From Polyangiaceae bacterium (GTDB taxonomy: Bacteria; Myxococcota_A; Polyangia; Polyangiales; Polyangiaceae), in contig CBDCTZ010000013.1 of assembly GCA_965222375.1 (NCBI GenBank), positions 736,001 through 800,000 of the forward strand: DNA of 64,000 nt. Direction: 5' to 3'. Below are positions 928 through 26,350 of the stretch, piece after piece. Position numbers and translations under genes: made by a program. Under the pieces are notes generated by a model. It was not told the DNA's origin. It searched no databases and saw only the letters and a program-made list of their open reading frames with translations. The stretch's first letter is position 1. Every line of letters begins with the position of its first letter.

Positions 928-1510
928 GTTCGCCCCCGATCAAGAACAGTTTTTCACGCGCGGAAACCTTGGTCAAAAAATGGTTTCGCGGAGCGAGCTT
1001 GGCGGCTAACTCCGCGGGCGTGTACACCACTGCGTTCACCTCGCGGCGAGTTTCTTCCTCCGCGCCGCGTATTGCGTCGACGACTTCCGCAAACGTTACG
1101 TCTCCAACAACGAGCAGGTCGATGTCACTGTGTTCGTTCTCGGTGCCTCGAGCCAACGATCCAAAAATGAAGGCGACCTCGATGCGATCGGTCAGCGGCA
1201 CGAGTGCTTGCGCCAAGACCGCCGCAGCTCCCAGTGTCTTGCGCACGATCGTCCGCAACTCTTCGAAGATGGGGCATGCAGCGTCAGCTTGAAAGTAGAC
1301 GTGCTGGCCATCGCGGGTTCGTCGGATGATGTTCGCGCGAGAAAGCCGCTCGAGTTCTCGCTGGATGCTGCCGACGCCGAGTCCCGTCAGCGACACGATT
1401 TCCCGCAAGTAGAAGCGCCGATGCGGTTGACCGAAGAGCAGCCCCAGCACGCCCTGCCGCGCCTTGGGGAAAAGGGCGGCCGGTATCGCACTGGCGACGA
1501 ATGAACCCAT
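899..1510 (-). CDS. wHTH + minimal nucleotidyltransferase (MNT) protein, putative antitoxin/autorepressor
   Basis: N-terminal HTH (FYLREIVSLTGLGVGSIQRELERL) and Pol-beta NTase motif FGSLARG...SDIDLLVVG; overlaps the HEPN-like gene start. Confidence 0.85.
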   Translation of the reverse strand: MGSFVASAIPAALFPKARQGVLGLLFGQPHRRFYLREIVSLTGLGVGSIQRELERLSRANIIRRTRDGQHVYFQADAACPIFEELRTIVRKTLGAAAVLAQALVPLTDRIEVAFIFGSLARGTENEHSDIDLLVVGDVTFAEVVDAIRGAEEETRREVNAVVYTPAELAAKLAPRNHFLTKVSAREKLFLIGGEREFAALSRQ

Positions 1511-1541
1511 TATGGGTACATTTGTACTCGAATTGAGTACA
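1502..1541. promoter_or_regulatory. Two tandem 19-bp palindromic operators at the MNT start
   Basis: TGAACCCATTATGGGTACA (1502-1520) and TGTACTCGAATTGAGTACA (1523-1541), 21 bp apart. Confidence 0.7.
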
Positions 1542-1657
1542 CCTAGCAACCTTCGCCAGTGCCGGGGCCTGGCCCCGCACTAGACTAGGGGCCCAACGCC
1601 GCCCCGGCGCCACGACCCCAACCAACCAACACCATCAAACGCCGGGCTGATTCGACT

Positions 1658-2686
1658 TCAGGGCTTCCAGTCCGGAGGCGGGCTGGGGACGGGGATGCAT
1701 TTCTGCTCGGTGGCCAAAGCGCTGTAGGCGCTTTCAGCGGGATAGGAATAGCCGAAGAGCATGCACATTTCGTTGTCGCCAATGCCTTCGACGATGGTCT
1801 TGTTGTGGGTGTTCTTCCAGGTGCAGCCAAAGCGCCAGCCGTTGCCTTGGGAAAGGTCGATGGCGGGCTCGTAGGAGTAGATGTCACTGGCTTCGTCGAA
1901 ACCGGTGTCTTCGAGGAAGATTTCGCCGTCCTTGTCGCCGCCCACGTAGCTGATGAAGAAGCGCTCGCCCAGGGCATGCATGTGCGGCATCGCGTCGACG
2001 ATCTTCATGGGCTCGCCGATCCAACACTCTGTTTCGACGGAATGCTCACTCTTCGGGGGAATTTCGAAGTCCTGAATCGCCCAGAAGAATGGCGCGATCT
2101 CCTGAGTCACGTCCTCCTCAGGCACGGTGAACCACTCGTACTTGGGGGCGACGGTGATGGGTTTTGCGGACGTGTTCAGGTAGTGCAGCCGGGCAACGAT
2201 CTCGTAGCCATCCTTGATGCGATAGGCCTGACCTGGACTGAAACGACGCCACTCGGTGCCGACCAGCTGCGTGGAAGAGCCGAAAAGGACGCTGCCCCCA
2301 CCAAGCACGTCCCCGGCTTCGCCGCCGAAGACTCCACCCTTGCCCTTTTCGCAGGGGCGGATCCCTTCACCGGTCTTCTTGCGAGTGGTCAGATTGCCGT
2401 GATGGAGGCCAGCGGTGGTGGTCAGGCTGGCTCCGCCCACGAAGCGACTCGGCCCGTTCAGCTCGAGGGGGAAAACCCAACACGGAGTCTTTTCGTCCCC
2501 GGGCTGCAGCGTGATTTCCGGGACCTGAATCGAAAAACCACCGATCGCGTTCGGCGGCGGTCCCTGCCCAGGCAGGGTGCCCGGCATGCCAGCGCCGCCG
2601 CCAGGCGTCGTCGGCTCGGACTCGGACCCACAACCCGACAGCAACGCCAGGCAGACAGCCGGTAGAAAAGGAATCAAGTAGCGCAT
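1658..2686 (-). CDS. Lipoprotein with copper type II ascorbate-dependent monooxygenase-like (PHM/DBH) fold
   Basis: Lipobox LLSGC; GLHHG, LHY, MPHMH and NEMC copper-ligand motifs. Confidence 0.75.
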   Translation of the reverse strand: MRYLIPFLPAVCLALLSGCGSESEPTTPGGGAGMPGTLPGQGPPPNAIGGFSIQVPEITLQPGDEKTPCWVFPLELNGPSRFVGGASLTTTAGLHHGNLTTRKKTGEGIRPCEKGKGGVFGGEAGDVLGGGSVLFGSSTQLVGTEWRRFSPGQAYRIKDGYEIVARLHYLNTSAKPITVAPKYEWFTVPEEDVTQEIAPFFWAIQDFEIPPKSEHSVETECWIGEPMKIVDAMPHMHALGERFFISYVGGDKDGEIFLEDTGFDEASDIYSYEPAIDLSQGNGWRFGCTWKNTHNKTIVEGIGDNEMCMLFGYSYPAESAYSALATEQKCIPVPSPPPDWKP

Positions 2687-2780
2687 GACTCAGCAGGCGA
2701 CGCCGCCTGCATCCAGTGTGACGCATTTCGGCGCTGCCGCGCAGTTCTATACGTTCTGCATTTACAGAATGCAAGTCGCG

Positions 2781-2838
2781 AAAAAAACCCGACCACAAAA
2801 AGGGTCCAGGGCGACCCGGTCACCCGGATCGCCCTGGA
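2781..2838 (-). terminator. Intrinsic terminator closing the minus-strand non-coding transcript
   Basis: Minus strand: UCCAGGGCGAUCCGG-GUGA-CCGGGUCGCCCUGGA (15-bp stem) followed by CCCUUUUU and a second U7 tract. Confidence 0.75.
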
Positions 2839-2849
2839 GGAAGTTTACG

Positions 2850-3480
2850 TTTTGCCGATGGTGGACGTCTGTCCCGACATTTCTGCCTCGCATGCATCAG
2901 CCTCCCTCGACACGCTTGCTGCGTTCCGAAGGCATCATCATCTCAATGTGGGCTCTCTATCCCCAGGACCCGCCAATTCGCGCTGGCTTGATCCGGGCAG
3001 GGAGCAGAGTCGTTAGCTCGTGCTCGCTTCGGCGAAGAGCGCCGACGATGCACCTCTGTTTCTACATCCGCCACATTTCTGCGACGGCGCGTGTGCTGAC
3101 CTCCCGCGTCGAATCGACTGGAAAAGCCTTTACCGCCATAACCGCTCAGCCTCTGACGTTTTATGTCGCCTCACAGACACCGCAGGCAGCGCTTCAGTCG
3201 CTGCTCACAGCTGGCTAATTCGTCGTAAACGCTTGCGCGCTCCGTCTCGAACTTCGCATTCACCTGCTTGGCCAGAGCTGCGCTGACACCGAACGGATTA
3301 AGATCAGTGCTGCTCACAACTCAAAACGCCTCGAACCGTACTAGACAGGAACCCCGCAGGTTACCCCGCGGATCGACACTTATCGTTCGTTGTTCACGAA
3401 TTAACAAGCATCGCGCACCCGTTCGCCTGACTCGCACCGCGACAGTTCTTTCAAAACTGCCTCGGCCACCATCGTGCTAG
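2850..3480 (-). ncRNA. Candidate large structured ncRNA B (~630 nt), family not recognised
   Basis: Ends pair (2856-2864 with 3466-3474); GUAA, GCAA, UUCG and GAAA-containing hairpins with G-U pairs favouring the minus strand; no credible ORF. Confidence 0.6.
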
Positions 3481-3554
3481 ACCGCATGTTACGTGCGCCT
3501 TACGGCACTCGCTCACACGGCCAAAGATGCGTCCGGCCGGTTCGTGCAACCCAC

Positions 3555-3570
3555 ATGTCAAAGAAGAGCA
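3555..3570 (-). promoter_or_regulatory. boxA-like antitermination sequence upstream of ncRNA B
   Basis: Minus strand UGCUCUUCUUUGACAU resembles the rrn boxA (UGCUCUUUAACA). Confidence 0.4.
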
Positions 3571-3669
3571 CCCGAATTCATATGTGAAAATCTTCCCGCG
3601 CAAGGCGAGAGATGAGCGCTTTCACTTCACGGCAAGAAGCGCCCGCTTCGGTCGGCAATGAATAGATTT

Positions 3670-4400
3670 GTTTTTACCTCTCCGAGTTCAACCAACCGCT
3701 TTTTAGGCGTGTTGAATCCGGCGACGTAGAGGGCCGACCTCTGACGCCTTCGTCACCGCCACTTCCGAACCCCGATCTCTCGAAAGCCCTTCCGTGACGA
3801 CCAAGACCGCCTCCACGACCCATCCGTGAAGATGAACCGCTTGCAGCAACCCAAGGCGCCTTCCACCGACGAGGAGACTTTCTAGGTCCCTTTGCGAGCT
3901 TAAGGTGAGAACTCACGTCCCCTGCCCGCTCACGACGCCATTTCGCTCGCCCCGATGTTTCCACCCGGGTTCGCTAGATTCTGCCACTCGCCCTAGCCGC
4001 AACCAGGGTTTGCGTCCGAATCCGACGCCGCTCGTCAACTTCTGCTTTCAAAACACATGATCGAGCACACCAACTCAGCTCGACTCCTCACACGGAACCA
4101 CGCTTTAACGCATCCCGCTGCCCCAAGCCCGAGGGCTTGTTGCCGTGAGCGACACGACACCGGAGTTACCCCCGGCTGGCCCGCGAAGGACCTGCCGCAT
4201 CGGCCGAGAACAGTGGAGCCAGCTGTGCGTACTGCGACGCAGAGGCCGACTCGTGCCGTTCTCGAACACCTCTTTGTCGCGAGTCATCTGCCGGTCCGGG
4301 GCTGAAGTTAATTCATCCGGCGGCCAGGATGCTCGCCAAGGCCCCTCCGCTTCACCGTCCGCGCGAACGGAACAGGCTGGCCGAGAGACCGAGGTGTCTG
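3670..4400 (-). ncRNA. Candidate large structured ncRNA A (~730 nt), family not recognised
   Basis: Hairpins CCGGGG-GUAA-CUCCGG (4160-4175), GGUG-GAAA-CAUC (3951-3969), CAAGCC-CUCG-GGCUUG (4124-4139); long-range ACACCUC/GAGGUGU pairing; no credible ORF. Confidence 0.5.
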
Positions 4401-4553
4401 ACTACTCTAGGGGGCCAAGCCGAGGGCAAGCTCGGCAGGACCGGGACCGCCTATGAACCCCCACCCGCGCTCACGCGCTCAGTCGTTCGGTTTAGGTGGG
4501 GAGGTCAGTCCGCACGCCATTTTTCGCTCGGATGCTGGAGGGCGTTGAAGCGC

Positions 4554-4576
4554 CCAACTGCCCACTGGGCAGTTGG
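4554..4576. promoter_or_regulatory. Perfect 11-bp inverted repeat, probable protein-binding site
   Basis: CCAACTGCCCA-C-TGGGCAGTTGG. Confidence 0.5.
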
Positions 4577-4779
4577 TCCCAACTGAAATCCGGCGGTGGT
4601 TCTACCGTGTCGGTGGAAAAGGCTTGCGACCTTTCCGAACCCGACCGGTGCTCCACGGCGCCCCTGGGTTGTCAACGAACCGTTCGCTTGTTGGCAGATG
4701 TGCCGCGAACTTCCGAAAACAGTTATGCCTCGAAGGGCCCATGCTGCGCAACACAAAACAACTTTCGTTTCGGAATTTG

Positions 4780-4799
4780 TTATCCACAGGCTATCCCCA
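4780..4799 (+). promoter_or_regulatory. DnaA box pair
   Basis: Perfect TTATCCACA at 4780-4788 and degenerate CTATCCCCA at 4791-4799. Confidence 0.5.
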
Positions 4800-5049
4800 G
4801 GTTGATGATGAGCGCCTCGACGTGGGCGCGGAGCTATTGATTCAAGTGCTTGAAGTCATTGCTAATTGTAGCGAGTCGCAGAGTTCCGCCGAGCGCCATT
4901 AGCTGCACTGTTGCATTTGTTTATATCATTTGTTTATCGTGTCTTAAGTCAATAAGAAAGCGTGTTTGATGCTTCGTCTGAGCAGAAGCTTGGCGCCGGC
5001 TGACGGCATCGCGCTCAAGGATCTCCAAACAGCACCGTTCAGCTGATTC

Positions 5050-6324
5050 ATGGTGGCCCACGCTCCGAGCTATGCCCTCACACCCCAAACAGCAGTGACC
5101 GAACGACCCCGGAGTGAACGGACTACATCCGCCCACCCTGCGCCTCACAGCATCAGCTCCGTTTCCCGCACGGCCAAGCGTGGCTCGGTGCTTGTCGTGG
5201 ATGACGATGCCATGCTGCGCCGCAGTCTCGATCGCGCTCTGTCCGCGGAAGGCTACGAAGTCGTGACATGCCCAGACGGTCACTCCGCCATCGCGCGCCT
5301 GATTGAGCGGCCCGTGGATGTGATCGTGAGCGATATCGCGATGCCGGGAATGGACGGGATCCAGCTGCTCCGCGAAGTACGCACCCACGACCTTCACGTA
5401 CCGGTCGTCCTGATCACTGGCGAGCCTGCGGTGTCGACCGCAGTTCAAGCGCTCGAGTACGGAGCGTTCCACTACTTGACGAAACCGGTGGACCCCCACG
5501 AGCTGGACAAGGTCATCGAGCGTGGCGCACGCCTTCACCGAATGGCCCAAGTCAAAGAGCAAGCGGCCGAGTTGCTCGGAAACCGTGGGGGCAGAGCGGC
5601 GGATCGTGCGGGCCTGGAAGCCAGCTTCGAGGGCGCACTGGCCACGCTCTGGATCGCCTACCAGCCCATCGTTTGCGCGCGAAACCAGACCATCTTCGGC
5701 CACGAGGCGCTGCTCCGCAGCGATGAGCCCAGCCTACCTCACCCGGGTGCCGTCATCGACGCGGCCGAACGCCTGGGGGAACTGCAAAAACTCGGCCGCG
5801 CGATCCGAGATCGTGCAGCTGTGCCTGCGCAGGAGCGGCCCCATGCTGCGAGAACCCTATTCGTCAATTTGCACGTCCACGACCTGCTTGACCCGACACT
5901 GGTCAACCCAGACGCGCCCCTGTCGAAGATCGCTGACCGAGTCGTGCTGGAGATCACCGAGCGCTCGAGCCTCGACGAGGTCAAGGACGTGCGCAATCGC
6001 GTACTGGCACTCCGGGAGATGGGTTTCCGAATCGCCGTCGACGACCTGGGTGCAGGCTACGCAGGACTAACCAGCTTCGCTCAGTTGGAGCCGGAGGTCG
6101 TGAAACTCGACATGAGTCTAGTGCGCGACGTGCACCGCTCCTCCACGAAGCAGAAGGTCATTCGGTCGATGGCCAGGCTGTGCCAGGACATGGGAATGCT
6201 CGTGGTCGGTGAGGGCGTCGAGAACGCCGAGGAGCGCGATACGCTGATTGAGCTGGGCTGCGACCTGTTGCAAGGCTTCTACTTCGCGAAACCCGCACGA
6301 CCGTTTCCGAGCGTGAGGTTCTGA
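5050..6324 (+). CDS. Response regulator with EAL c-di-GMP phosphodiesterase domain
   Basis: REC (VVDDD, SDIAMPGMDG, KP) plus HEALLR, DDLGAG, KLD, EGVE, QGF. Confidence 0.93.
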   Translation: MVAHAPSYALTPQTAVTERPRSERTTSAHPAPHSISSVSRTAKRGSVLVVDDDAMLRRSLDRALSAEGYEVVTCPDGHSAIARLIERPVDVIVSDIAMPGMDGIQLLREVRTHDLHVPVVLITGEPAVSTAVQALEYGAFHYLTKPVDPHELDKVIERGARLHRMAQVKEQAAELLGNRGGRAADRAGLEASFEGALATLWIAYQPIVCARNQTIFGHEALLRSDEPSLPHPGAVIDAAERLGELQKLGRAIRDRAAVPAQERPHAARTLFVNLHVHDLLDPTLVNPDAPLSKIADRVVLEITERSSLDEVKDVRNRVLALREMGFRIAVDDLGAGYAGLTSFAQLEPEVVKLDMSLVRDVHRSSTKQKVIRSMARLCQDMGMLVVGEGVENAEERDTLIELGCDLLQGFYFAKPARPFPSVRF

Positions 6325-6325
6325 G

Positions 6326-7405
6326 ATGGCTTTGCGCTCCTATGCGCCACCGTCCTTTCAGCCTGAGTCCGGGGCGCGCTCCGCCCTCTTGCCGGAGCCG
6401 CCGCCCTCGGCTGCCTACCCAGCCTCGAGTACGGGAACGACCACGCCAGAAATGGCCGCTGTGCGCGTGCCCGCTTCGGACATTCCTGGCGACAACCTCG
6501 ACTCGTGGGAGGAAATCACGGACGTCGCGCGCCTCACGGAGGTTGGAGAGCCCCCGGCGGCAGTGGATGGCCGGGATCGGGCAGTGCTTCTGCGCGCTGA
6601 CGGCGTGGGTGCGGGACAGGTCCTCTCCCTAGGTGCAGGAGGCGCCGTGGTGGGGCGAGCACCGGACGCAAGTATCCACCTCGATGACGCAGGAGTGAGC
6701 CGCCGCCACGCCCGCTTGACGCCCACACTGTCGGGACGCCACTTCATCGAAGACCTCGATTCGAGCAACGGTACCTTCGTGAGGGGTCAACGTGTCGAAC
6801 GCGCCTGGCTTCAGGATGGCGACATGATCCAGCTGGGGCCGCGCGTCAGTTTTCGCTACGTCGTAGTCGATCAATCCGGCGAGGCGCTGTTTCGCCAGCT
6901 CTACCAGTCCAGCGTCCGGGATTCTCTGACGGGAGCGTACAACCGCCGACACTTCGACGAGCGCCTGACCGCGGAGCTCGCCTACGCGGATCGGCACAGC
7001 ACTGATCTATCCCTGGTCTTGTTCGATATCGACCACTTCAAGAAGGTCAACGACAACTTCGGTCATCCTGCCGGCGACGCCGTTCTGTGCCACGTCGTCA
7101 AGCTGGCTCAACGCGAACTTCGAGCGGAGGACGTCTTTGCCCGCTACGGTGGCGAGGAGTTCGCGATGTTGCTGCGAGGGGTTGGGCCGTCAGGCGCCGT
7201 CCGCGCAGCAAGTCGCATTCGAACGACGATCGAGGCAAACGCGAGCCAACACGAGGGCCGCATGATTTCTGTGACCGTGAGTGGCGGTGTCGCGTCGTTG
7301 AGCGAGACCGCAGAGCGCTCGGCTCAAACCCTGGTCGGGCGGGCAGATGCACGGCTGTATCGGGCCAAGCACGAGGGCCGCAACCGCATGATTTCGCGGG
7401 GCTAG
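6326..7405 (+). CDS. FHA-domain diguanylate cyclase
   Basis: FHA (GR...VSRRHA...SSNGT) plus DIDHFK, RAED I-site and RYGGEEF. Confidence 0.93.
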   Translation: MALRSYAPPSFQPESGARSALLPEPPPSAAYPASSTGTTTPEMAAVRVPASDIPGDNLDSWEEITDVARLTEVGEPPAAVDGRDRAVLLRADGVGAGQVLSLGAGGAVVGRAPDASIHLDDAGVSRRHARLTPTLSGRHFIEDLDSSNGTFVRGQRVERAWLQDGDMIQLGPRVSFRYVVVDQSGEALFRQLYQSSVRDSLTGAYNRRHFDERLTAELAYADRHSTDLSLVLFDIDHFKKVNDNFGHPAGDAVLCHVVKLAQRELRAEDVFARYGGEEFAMLLRGVGPSGAVRAASRIRTTIEANASQHEGRMISVTVSGGVASLSETAERSAQTLVGRADARLYRAKHEGRNRMISRG

Positions 7406-26277: not shown

Positions 26278-26350
26278 GCCTCCGTAGCTCAGTGGATAGA
26301 GCAGTGGTTTCCTAAACCATTGGTCGCAAGTTCGACTCTTGCCGGAGGCG
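26278..26350 (+). tRNA. tRNA-Arg(CCT)
   Basis: GCCTCCG/CGGAGGC acceptor stem, anticodon loop TTCCTAA, GTTCGACTC T-loop; no encoded CCA; TTGACC-N17-CAAAGT promoter candidate at 26232-26260. Confidence 0.96.

Follow-up and report, generated by a model that had tools for sequence, protein, structure and literature searches.

Evidence for a large, highly expressed structured RNA gene in the bacterial order Polyangiales

Introduction

The largest well-supported structured RNAs of bacteria, ribosomal RNA (rRNA) apart, are well under 1 kb in length, and each of them has long been puzzling. OLE (ornate, large, extremophilic; RF01071) occurs in Firmicutes, with the genes of its partners, oapA and oapB, adjacent to its own, and GOLLD (~800 nt) and ROOL (~580 nt) are often found in phages or prophages beside tRNAs. 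OLE is described as an RNA of ~600 nt that works in a membrane-associated ribonucleoprotein (RNP) (PMC9723947, PMC10898510), and GOLLD and ROOL are described as RNA-only homo-oligomers (PMC12286853). Here we analyse a stretch of DNA from a Polyangiaceae bacterium (assembly GCA_965222375.1, contig CBDCTZ010000013.1, positions 736,001 to 800,000), whose 64,000 nucleotides are referred to throughout as the window, and in particular its interval 3670-4400. A first-pass annotation, made from the letters of the sequence, had proposed that this interval encodes a distinct RNA of ~730 nt ('RNA A') with a promoter of its own, next to a second candidate ('RNA B') on the same strand. Our results indicate that 3670-4400 is very likely the central ~40% of one stand-alone, large structured non-coding RNA (ncRNA) gene on the minus strand, a description that concerns the structure and genetics of the locus; in all probability the gene is ~1.9 kb long, heavily folded, highly expressed and non-coding.

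At 1.9-2.5 kb and with domains like those of rRNA, this RNA would be an unusually large addition to a short list, and among the largest structured bacterial RNAs besides rRNA itself. It resembles OLE, which works within an RNP, in being a large, intricately folded, stand-alone bacterial ncRNA with highly conserved stretches; it differs from OLE in being ~3 times larger, in belonging to Myxococcota and not to Gram-positive extremophiles, in matching no model, in having DnaA-box-like sites upstream, and in lacking conserved adjoining partner genes among 75 flanking open reading frames (ORFs), in which the oap genes were not searched by name. GOLLD and ROOL are likewise large, ornate bacterial RNAs, and an RNA-only assembly is one possible way in which the present RNA might work; unlike them it is 1.9-2.5 kb long, single-copy and chromosomal, has no match to a model, a phage or a plasmid, and lies ~21 kb from the nearest tRNA gene in the window. 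The likeness to 16S and 23S rRNA extends to kilobase size, domains closed by long-range helices, frequent tetraloop-capped hairpins, lineage-specific expansion segments (a core of 1.1 kb against full lengths of 1.9-2.5 kb) and very high abundance in RNA libraries. In contrast to rRNA, the gene is single, is not part of an rRNA operon, is restricted to one order and shows no similarity to the small- or large-subunit models over 3100-5200 and 2700-3300 even at E<=10, and a normal 23S rRNA is present elsewhere in the genome. A multi-domain build with GNRA-type loops and long-range helices is shared with RNase P RNA and group II introns, and by analogy catalysis is possible; as differences, no model of a large ribozyme matches, a catalytic motif could not be recognised, RNase P RNA is encoded elsewhere in the genome, and the locus contains neither an intron-encoded protein nor an interrupted host gene.

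These comparisons were made against Rfam 15 (4227 models, including those of OLE, GOLLD, ROOL, HEARO, raiA, the rRNAs, RNase P, group I and II introns, 6S RNA and tmRNA). Over the whole window the sole match to reach the gathering threshold is a tRNA gene at 26278-26350 (plus strand). With the threshold relaxed to E<=10, the regions 3100-5200 and 2700-3300 returned only chance-level scores of 9.8-19 bits, to be compared with cut-offs of 40-315, and three distant homologue loci gave no match. A literature search at the level of abstracts, with subscription journals and supplements outside its scope, did not turn up any account of an RNA like this one. Within the reach of these searches of Rfam and the literature, the class is undescribed. 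The idea that it replaces a universal RNA was rejected, since the RNase P RNA, 6S RNA, tmRNA and 23S rRNA of this genome were all found elsewhere.

Results

The interval 3670-4400 lies inside a long ORF-poor region between a monooxygenase-like gene (1658-2686, minus strand) and a gene encoding a REC-EAL protein (5050-6324, plus strand), the latter being the upstream neighbour and divergent from the RNA gene. The ORF-poor block spans ~2790-4810 on the minus strand, with 3670-4400 at its centre; between 2700 and 4200 the plus strand is strongly C-rich, and the minus strand therefore G-rich. The bacterium's 10.5 Mb genome contains a single copy of the block. When 41 related genomes were searched at the DNA level, long collinear matches were obtained in all five of the other genomes of the genus, with identities of 85, 84, 83, 73 and 69% over the block, and otherwise three short matches of 24-47 nt. 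In each of the five, conservation has sharp borders at ~2795 and ~4801-4810 and is continuous between them. The block is also better conserved than the flanking genes, as can be seen from the match rates at locus L003: 61 of 64 positions are identical at 3985-4048 and 73 of 77 at 4234-4310, versus 77 of 97 at 1957-2053 and 69 of 93 at 5124-5216 in the flanks. An invariant 20-mer used as a query located 7 more genome loci (metagenome-assembled genomes labelled Polyangiaceae, Myxococcales or 'delta proteobacterium') and 12 metagenome loci, and further collinear similarity, over up to 2 kb, is present in all of them except L019, which shows no similarity, and L026, which is truncated. Identity declines with taxonomic distance, from 69-85% inside the genus to 43-60% outside it. 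After removal of duplicates, 13 distinct sequences, 52-85% identical to the window, formed the alignment set. The invariant stretches include a 17-mer at the 5' side, UCAGAGG at 3744-3738 and GCGGGGGGUC at 3107-3098.

A protein-coding gene or pseudogene was rejected as an explanation of this conservation on three grounds. The stretch is ORF-poor, as noted in the first-pass annotation, its longest frames shift in place and frame among homologues, and no frame is common to the 14 homologues compared; Pfam gave no match for four ORFs within the block or for one overlapping its 3' end; and the 209 distinct gap runs of the 13-sequence alignment have lengths that are mostly not multiples of three (114, 63 and 32 runs leave a remainder of 1, 2 and 0, respectively).

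A consensus fold of 643 pairs was obtained with RNAalifold from a MAFFT alignment of 13 homologues (2256 columns). The minus sense is consistently favoured over the plus sense: 90.7 versus 86.4% of the cells are canonical, G-U cells number 1355 versus 319 and A-C cells 186 versus 489, and the mean fold energy is -586.6 versus -344.3 kcal/mol. From the G-U asymmetry, together with the terminator described below, we infer that the RNA strand is the minus strand. In a pruned set of 403 pairs, restricted to those that stack on a neighbour and have no more than one non-standard cell, 182 pairs are compensatory, compared with 87.5 ± 5.2 in shuffled controls (none of 500 reaches the observed count) and 37-44 in slid controls. 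The fold also holds in 14 homologues that were outside its derivation, 43-55% identical to the window, in which 60-79% of the 643 pairs are canonical versus 37-49% when slid. Considering only the 224 unpruned pairs that lie wholly inside 3670-4400, 91.3% of the cells are paired (80.6% shuffled, 40-45% slid), and 123 of the pairs have changes on both sides, against 67.9 ± 4.7 in the shuffles, none of 500 of which reaches that number, and 40-53 when slid. Folding of the single sequence points in the same direction: on the minus strand 3670-4400 reaches -323.3 kcal/mol versus -306.3 ± 7.3 for 20 shuffles (z -2.33, none as good), and on the plus strand z is -0.76, with 3 of 20 shuffles as good. 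The structured nature that had been claimed for the interval is thus upheld both by the comparison with shuffles on the two strands and by covariation. Overall, these analyses show that the folded block is organised, with support from covariation, as three domains followed by a 3' domain, and that a long-range helix closes each of the three.

Read from 5' to 3' along the minus strand, the most conserved stretch of the RNA is the motif CGGAAGUUCGCGGCACAUC at 4697..4715, which is identical in the window and in 12 distinct loci (L002-L023), has 1-4 mismatches in 12 more distant loci, and, in a comparison of 27 sequences, is the longest run with >=85% identity; a small invariant hairpin, 4718-4713 with 4708-4703, overlaps it. 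Domain I (4069..4695) is closed by 4695-4677 with 4086-4069 and holds the helix 4398-4391 with 4272-4265; most of it is without counterpart in the ~1.1 kb form of the RNA found in family f9, a correspondence that is approximate. Domain II (3568..4068) is closed by two helices, 4068-4062 with 3574-3568 (7 pairs, 2 compensatory) and 4049-4045 with 3590-3586 (5 pairs, 4 compensatory), which together contain 6 compensatory pairs out of 12. Domain III (2938..3567), closed by 3567-3548 with 2954-2938 (15 pairs, 2 compensatory), contains the regions 3027-3162 and 3412-3575 on which the models R1 and R2 used below were built, respectively. The 3' domain (2854..2932) ends in the helix 2901-2895 with 2860-2854, 4 of whose 7 pairs are compensatory. 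Beyond it lies an intrinsic terminator (2795..2838) composed of a G+C-rich stem of 14-15 bp, a GUGA loop and a U-run: in the stem, 2838-2805, 11 of the 15 pairs are G-C; it encloses the 4-nt loop and is followed by CCCTTTTTGT. In the alignment the terminator helix comprises 14 pairs, 7 of them compensatory, with 99.5% of cells paired, and conservation ends directly after the U-run in 13 of 13 sequences. This hairpin is the only terminator found on the minus strand of 2600-5000.

The letters quoted in the first-pass annotation are all present on the minus strand, to within ~1 nt of where it placed them, and most of the pairings it drew from them belong to the fold. The hairpin CCGGGG-GUAA-CUCCGG (CCGGGGGUAACUCCGG, 4176-4161) is made of 7 pairs, of which 2 vary on both sides and the other 5 on one, and carries a lineage-specific loop insertion; the hairpin CAAGCC/GGCUUG (CAAGCCCUCGGGCUUG, 4140-4125) is 84-86% paired, with 6 of 10 pairs compensatory; and the proposed long-range pairing of ACACCUC (4397-4391) with GAGGUGU (4272-4266) is recovered as a helix of 8 pairs, 2 of them compensatory and one split CG:6/UA:6. 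The hairpin GGUG-GAAA-CAUC, inside 3969-3951, also has 6 compensatory pairs out of 10, with a less clean support of 68% paired. For UCGAGC/GCUCGA (~4084-4062) and AGAGG/CCUCU (~3741-3725) only the letters could be retained: both pairings fall outside the consensus fold and are unpaired in distant homologues. As a unit, however, the interval is not self-contained. It corresponds to the 3' half of domain I and most of domain II, and 49 predicted pairs that touch it have their partner outside. Because covarying helices, namely the two that close domain II, cross position 3670, the sequences on both sides of it fold together; and because those 49 pairs leave the interval and its borders cut domains I and II, 'RNA A' belongs with its neighbour to a single folding unit. 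What survives of the earlier proposal is a structured, expressed ncRNA on the minus strand that is not a sequence copy of 'RNA B'; the notion of a distinct ~730-nt RNA with its own promoter does not, as helices and RNA-library contigs run across its borders and there is no internal terminator.

Thirteen RNA sequencing runs contain 30-52% of the sampled 31-mers of the stretch, and four of them, metatranscriptomes from three studies (X1, X2, X5 and X11), were mapped as contigs on window positions 1000-7000. In all four, contig cover is limited to ~2854-4705 (~1.85 kb), with word depths of 893x in X1, 1079x in X2, 184x in X5 and ~5x in X11; over the flanks, 1000-2800 and 4820-7000, depth is 0 in X1, X2 and X11 and <=0.9x in X5. 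Since the flanking genes have a depth of about zero, the signal derives from RNA and not from contaminating DNA; the silent flanks of X1, X2 and X11 serve as a contrast to the RNA body only, not as evidence that the genes there are unexpressed. A contig of X1 reaches from 2903 to 4697, with 35 differences over 1798 letters, and one of X5 covers 3158-4558; both run through the whole of 3670-4400 and its two borders. At the 3' side contigs start at 2854 in X11 and at 2856 in X5. At the 5' side all four runs end at 4697-4705, and in X1 and X2 position 4704/4705 is adjoined by letters that we take to be sequencing adapter. These data show that the transcript is a discrete unit, very abundant in the four mapped runs; its ends and strand follow only by inference.

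The upstream region was compared in 24 distinct loci with a detectable 5' motif. Left out were loci with no motif within 4 mismatches (L069, L074, L076, L082, L083, L084), duplicates (L003, L013-L015, L024, L027, L066, L067), the upstream-truncated L020, L019 (no similarity) and partial metagenome loci (L017, L021, L025, L026, L028). On the minus strand of the window, two phased DnaA-box-like 9-mers, TGTGGATAA (4788-4780) and TGGGGATAG (4799-4791), stand at -74 and -85 from the 5' motif; in plus coordinates the former corresponds to a strict box TTATCCACA at 4780-4788, which fits the DnaA-box consensus TTATNCACA. The 9-mer TGTGGAnAA, the classical DnaA box, is found at -73 to -107 from the motif in 23 of the 24 loci, and 22 have at least two sites (within 2 mismatches) at ~-74, -85 and -97, all in one orientation and with a period of 11-12 nt. 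Within the 5' flank the boxes take up no more than ~25-35 bp. Strict copies of TTATCCACA number 10 in the 10.5 Mb genome, as compared with ~25 expected from composition, and an inverted pair of boxes, TTGTCCACA..TGTGGATAA, lies directly upstream of the likely dnaA start (G000:C15:939266-939286); counting this one, the genome has only three spots where two near-consensus boxes fall within 40 nt.

Phased low-affinity DnaA boxes are a feature of the replication origin, oriC, and dnaA is autoregulated. The region upstream of the RNA is comparable to a DnaA-controlled promoter in that 9-mers fitting TTATCCACA recur in one orientation with a period of 11-12 nt just upstream of a candidate -35 element, and in that dnaA itself is preceded here by an inverted pair of this box; it differs in that the target would be a giant ncRNA gene and not a replication gene, and 11-nt direct repeats would equally suit a regulator of the OmpR/PhoB type. 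The locus was rejected as oriC itself: dnaA is on contig C15 and the window on C13, and the genome is without a cluster of at least three relaxed boxes within 300 nt. A separate observation concerns the DnaA ATPase family, which is matched weakly and identically by eight open frames of 409 aa on contigs C9, C11, C12, C14, C15 and C16 of this genome; these look like copies of one insertion-sequence helper ATPase.

Between the boxes and CGGAAGUUCGCGGCACAUC, the 24 aligned upstream regions share positionally conserved TTGc and cATAAn elements 17 nt apart. These may represent the weak -35 and -10 hexamers of a sigma-70-type promoter with a start at ~4714-4716; in the window the putative promoter would occupy 4723..4751 on the minus strand, with TTGCGC (4751-4746) as -35, a 17-nt spacer and GCATAA (4728-4723) as -10. 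Standard libraries lose about 10 nt at 5' ends, so that such a start would be compatible with the stop of the contigs at 4704/4705. Two other promoter candidates were rejected. The hexamer TAGAGT (4409-4404), singled out in the first-pass annotation as -10-like, is indeed present, but it lies inside the transcript and is unconserved in the genus, the other genomes reading TGGAGT or otherwise; and GG-N10-GC around -24/-12, checked by eye as a sigma-54 promoter, is unconserved in distant homologues.

With model R1, one match per genome was obtained in 40 of 151 genomes of a family sample (26 of 89 genera). In a sample of the order, R1 matches 25 of 151 genomes, distributed as 9 of 23 in family f1, 13 of 23 in f9, 2 of 9 in f11 and none in the other 21 families, and in a sample of the phylum it matches 8 of 151, all of them in f1 or f9. 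Model R2 matches 13 of 151 genomes of the order sample and adds families f5, f18 and f23; it matches none of the 23 f9 genomes, against 13 for R1. As detection is model-dependent to this extent, calls of absence are unreliable. R1 and R2 matches occur on one contig in 5 genomes, at the expected spacing of ~260 nt. An nhmmer search of 20 homologue loci found 17 to be collinear, 14 of them complete at 1,913-2,528 nt; the 13-sequence profile used missed 3 of the 20 (L076, L083 and L084), all matched by R1. One of these, L083 in an f9 genome, fits the same layout into ~1.1 kb, with boxes, a 5' motif of the GGAAG type, blocks of conserved core and a terminator, and aligns mainly, as an approximation, to window positions ~3880-2800. 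This pattern suggests a shared core with Polyangiaceae-specific expansions, which would include much of 3900-4400. The results show that the RNA family spans several families of the order Polyangiales, its members measuring 1.9-2.5 kb among Polyangiaceae against ~1.1 kb in a second family.

Discussion

In the light of its size, its domain organisation with expansion segments, its invariant stretches and its independence from neighbouring genes, the RNA could be a trans-acting structural or catalytic molecule. By analogy with other large RNAs, we tentatively propose that it may act in trans, as the abundant architectural or catalytic core of an RNP or of an RNA-only assembly, and not as a cis-regulator or a messenger. 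Transcription would proceed from ~4715 by a weak promoter of the sigma-70 type placed just downstream of 2-4 helically phased DnaA-box-like sites (-74, -85, -97), and RNA synthesis would be tied in the simplest case to DnaA, or else to a different factor with TGTGGAnAA as its site; a stable mature RNA would then result from the 5' hairpin together with trimming of the 3' end. A bolder proposal, which we consider rather unlikely, is that the RNA is the architectural or catalytic core of a hitherto unrecognised cellular machine, RNP or RNA-only, of ribosomal-RNA scale in Polyangiales, with a ~1.1 kb core expanded up to 2.5 kb and licensed by DnaA through the phased boxes; such a machine would couple the initiation of replication, or the growth state, to an RNA-based process.

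Several observations weigh against the interpretation of the locus as a single RNA gene of this kind, or limit the force of the evidence for it. The mapped RNA runs were selected for containing this stretch, and their contigs carry no information on strand, on true ends or on whether they come from a single transcript; as X5 has an internal adapter junction at 3158, the stop at 4704/4705 can be taken only as a faint indication of the true end. Covariation was counted on the MAFFT alignment that also gave the fold, pruning selects good pairs and inflates the percentage paired, and the helix that would join the 5' and 3' sides, 4700-4697 with 2936-2933, is invariant and gives no covariation signal. 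A consensus promoter scanner did not call the putative promoter, whose hexamers are weak, and reported only an unrelated weak site at 4952-4925. In 111 of the 151 genomes of the family sample R1 has no match, which means that the gene is patchily distributed or that its more diverged forms escape the model. The neighbours vary among genera, and no candidate partner protein recurs among the 75 flanking ORFs scanned across loci.

The bearing of these points can be appreciated by setting the proposed single gene against other explanations. That the block holds two or more separate mid-sized RNAs that fold independently, 'RNA A' at 3670-4400 with a promoter at ~4404 and then 'RNA B', would agree with the many local hairpins in 3670-4400, with TAGAGT at 4409-4404 and with the inability of contigs to prove a single transcript; the contigs of X2 even break at ~4105-4170, though variant paths there suggest a strain mixture. 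Against it stand the helices that bridge 3670, with 6 of 12 pairs compensatory, the 49 pairs that leave the interval, the lack of conservation of TAGAGT, the X1 and X5 contigs that cross both borders, the absence of an internal minus-strand terminator, and a conservation that is unbroken from ~4810 to ~2795, all of which make separate RNAs very unlikely. The patchiness within the family (R1 in 40 of 151 genomes) and the differing neighbours among genera could also be those of a mobile-element or prophage RNA, as GOLLD and ROOL often are, in place of a chromosomal housekeeping gene. We hold this to be highly unlikely: the gene is single-copy in all 40 carriers, synteny is kept inside the genus, identity tracks taxonomic distance, no match was found in 50,697 phage or 72,556 plasmid records, and no integrase or phage family occurs among the 75 flanking ORFs scanned. 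A viral origin was likewise rejected: the only match in viral contigs, a single 17-mer, is without flanking similarity and was dismissed as chance.

The recurrence of the same flanking genes in near relatives, and the many chance frames that high G+C content leaves, would be compatible with an RNA that belongs to a neighbouring gene, as a cis-acting leader or a 3' untranslated region of great length, or with a messenger for unrecognised small proteins. Such a relation is extremely unlikely for an RNA that has its own terminator, at which conservation ends, whose upstream neighbour is divergent and whose neighbours change among genera; moreover, the flanking genes have a depth of ~0 versus 184-1079x for the RNA, and indels are mostly not multiples of three. 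It may finally be asked whether the locus acts at the level of DNA, for example in titrating or regulating DnaA, with transcription being incidental. The phased boxes, at fixed positions in 23 of 24 loci, and the rarity of strict boxes (10 in the genome) speak for such a role, but the boxes fill only ~25-35 bp, the body of 1.9 kb has strand-specific covariation of the RNA type with an excess of G-U, and dnaA is on another contig, so that a DNA element is hardly credible as an account of the block.

The RNA gene also illustrates that the 'intergenic' kilobases of large G+C-rich genomes can conceal major RNA genes that are missed by current annotation and by Rfam. It is found in a bacterial group that has cultivable members and is known for complex behaviour and natural products, so that the function of the RNA would be open to direct testing.

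Genomic context

In near relatives the RNA is surrounded by the same genes: REC-EAL/FHA-GGDEF genes flank it at one end, and at the other there is a gene of the FadL-like or monooxygenase-like type; the FadL-like porin, REC-EAL and FHA-GGDEF neighbours recur in near relatives only, and otherwise neighbours differ. In the window, 5050-7405 (plus strand) encodes a REC-EAL response regulator followed by an FHA-GGDEF diguanylate cyclase, both divergent from the RNA gene; a REC-EAL gene is also found beside the RNA at L075, and an FHA-GGDEF gene at L068 and L073. At L080:949-3018 (plus strand, genome G118), a gene convergent to the 3' end of the RNA encodes a 690-aa protein with a major-vault-protein shoulder domain (PF11978, E 2.3e-32). 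A vault-like particle was rejected, the domain being present at only 1 of 17 loci (L080) and treated as a coincidence; a search of the window's own genome found none, and the control of that search was also matchless.

On the 3' side of the RNA, an ORF of 177 aa at 2685-3218 (plus strand) lies opposite the 3' domain and the terminator; it is without a Pfam match and is probably a spurious frame, liable to mistaken annotation. An inverted repeat with the pattern TTCTG-N5/6-CAGAA (for example TTCTGCATTTACAGAA) follows the terminator closely, at 2745-2775, and precedes the monooxygenase-like gene. It is kept in the window and in all five of the other genomes of the genus, not further out, and looks like an operator of the monooxygenase-like gene (1658-2686).

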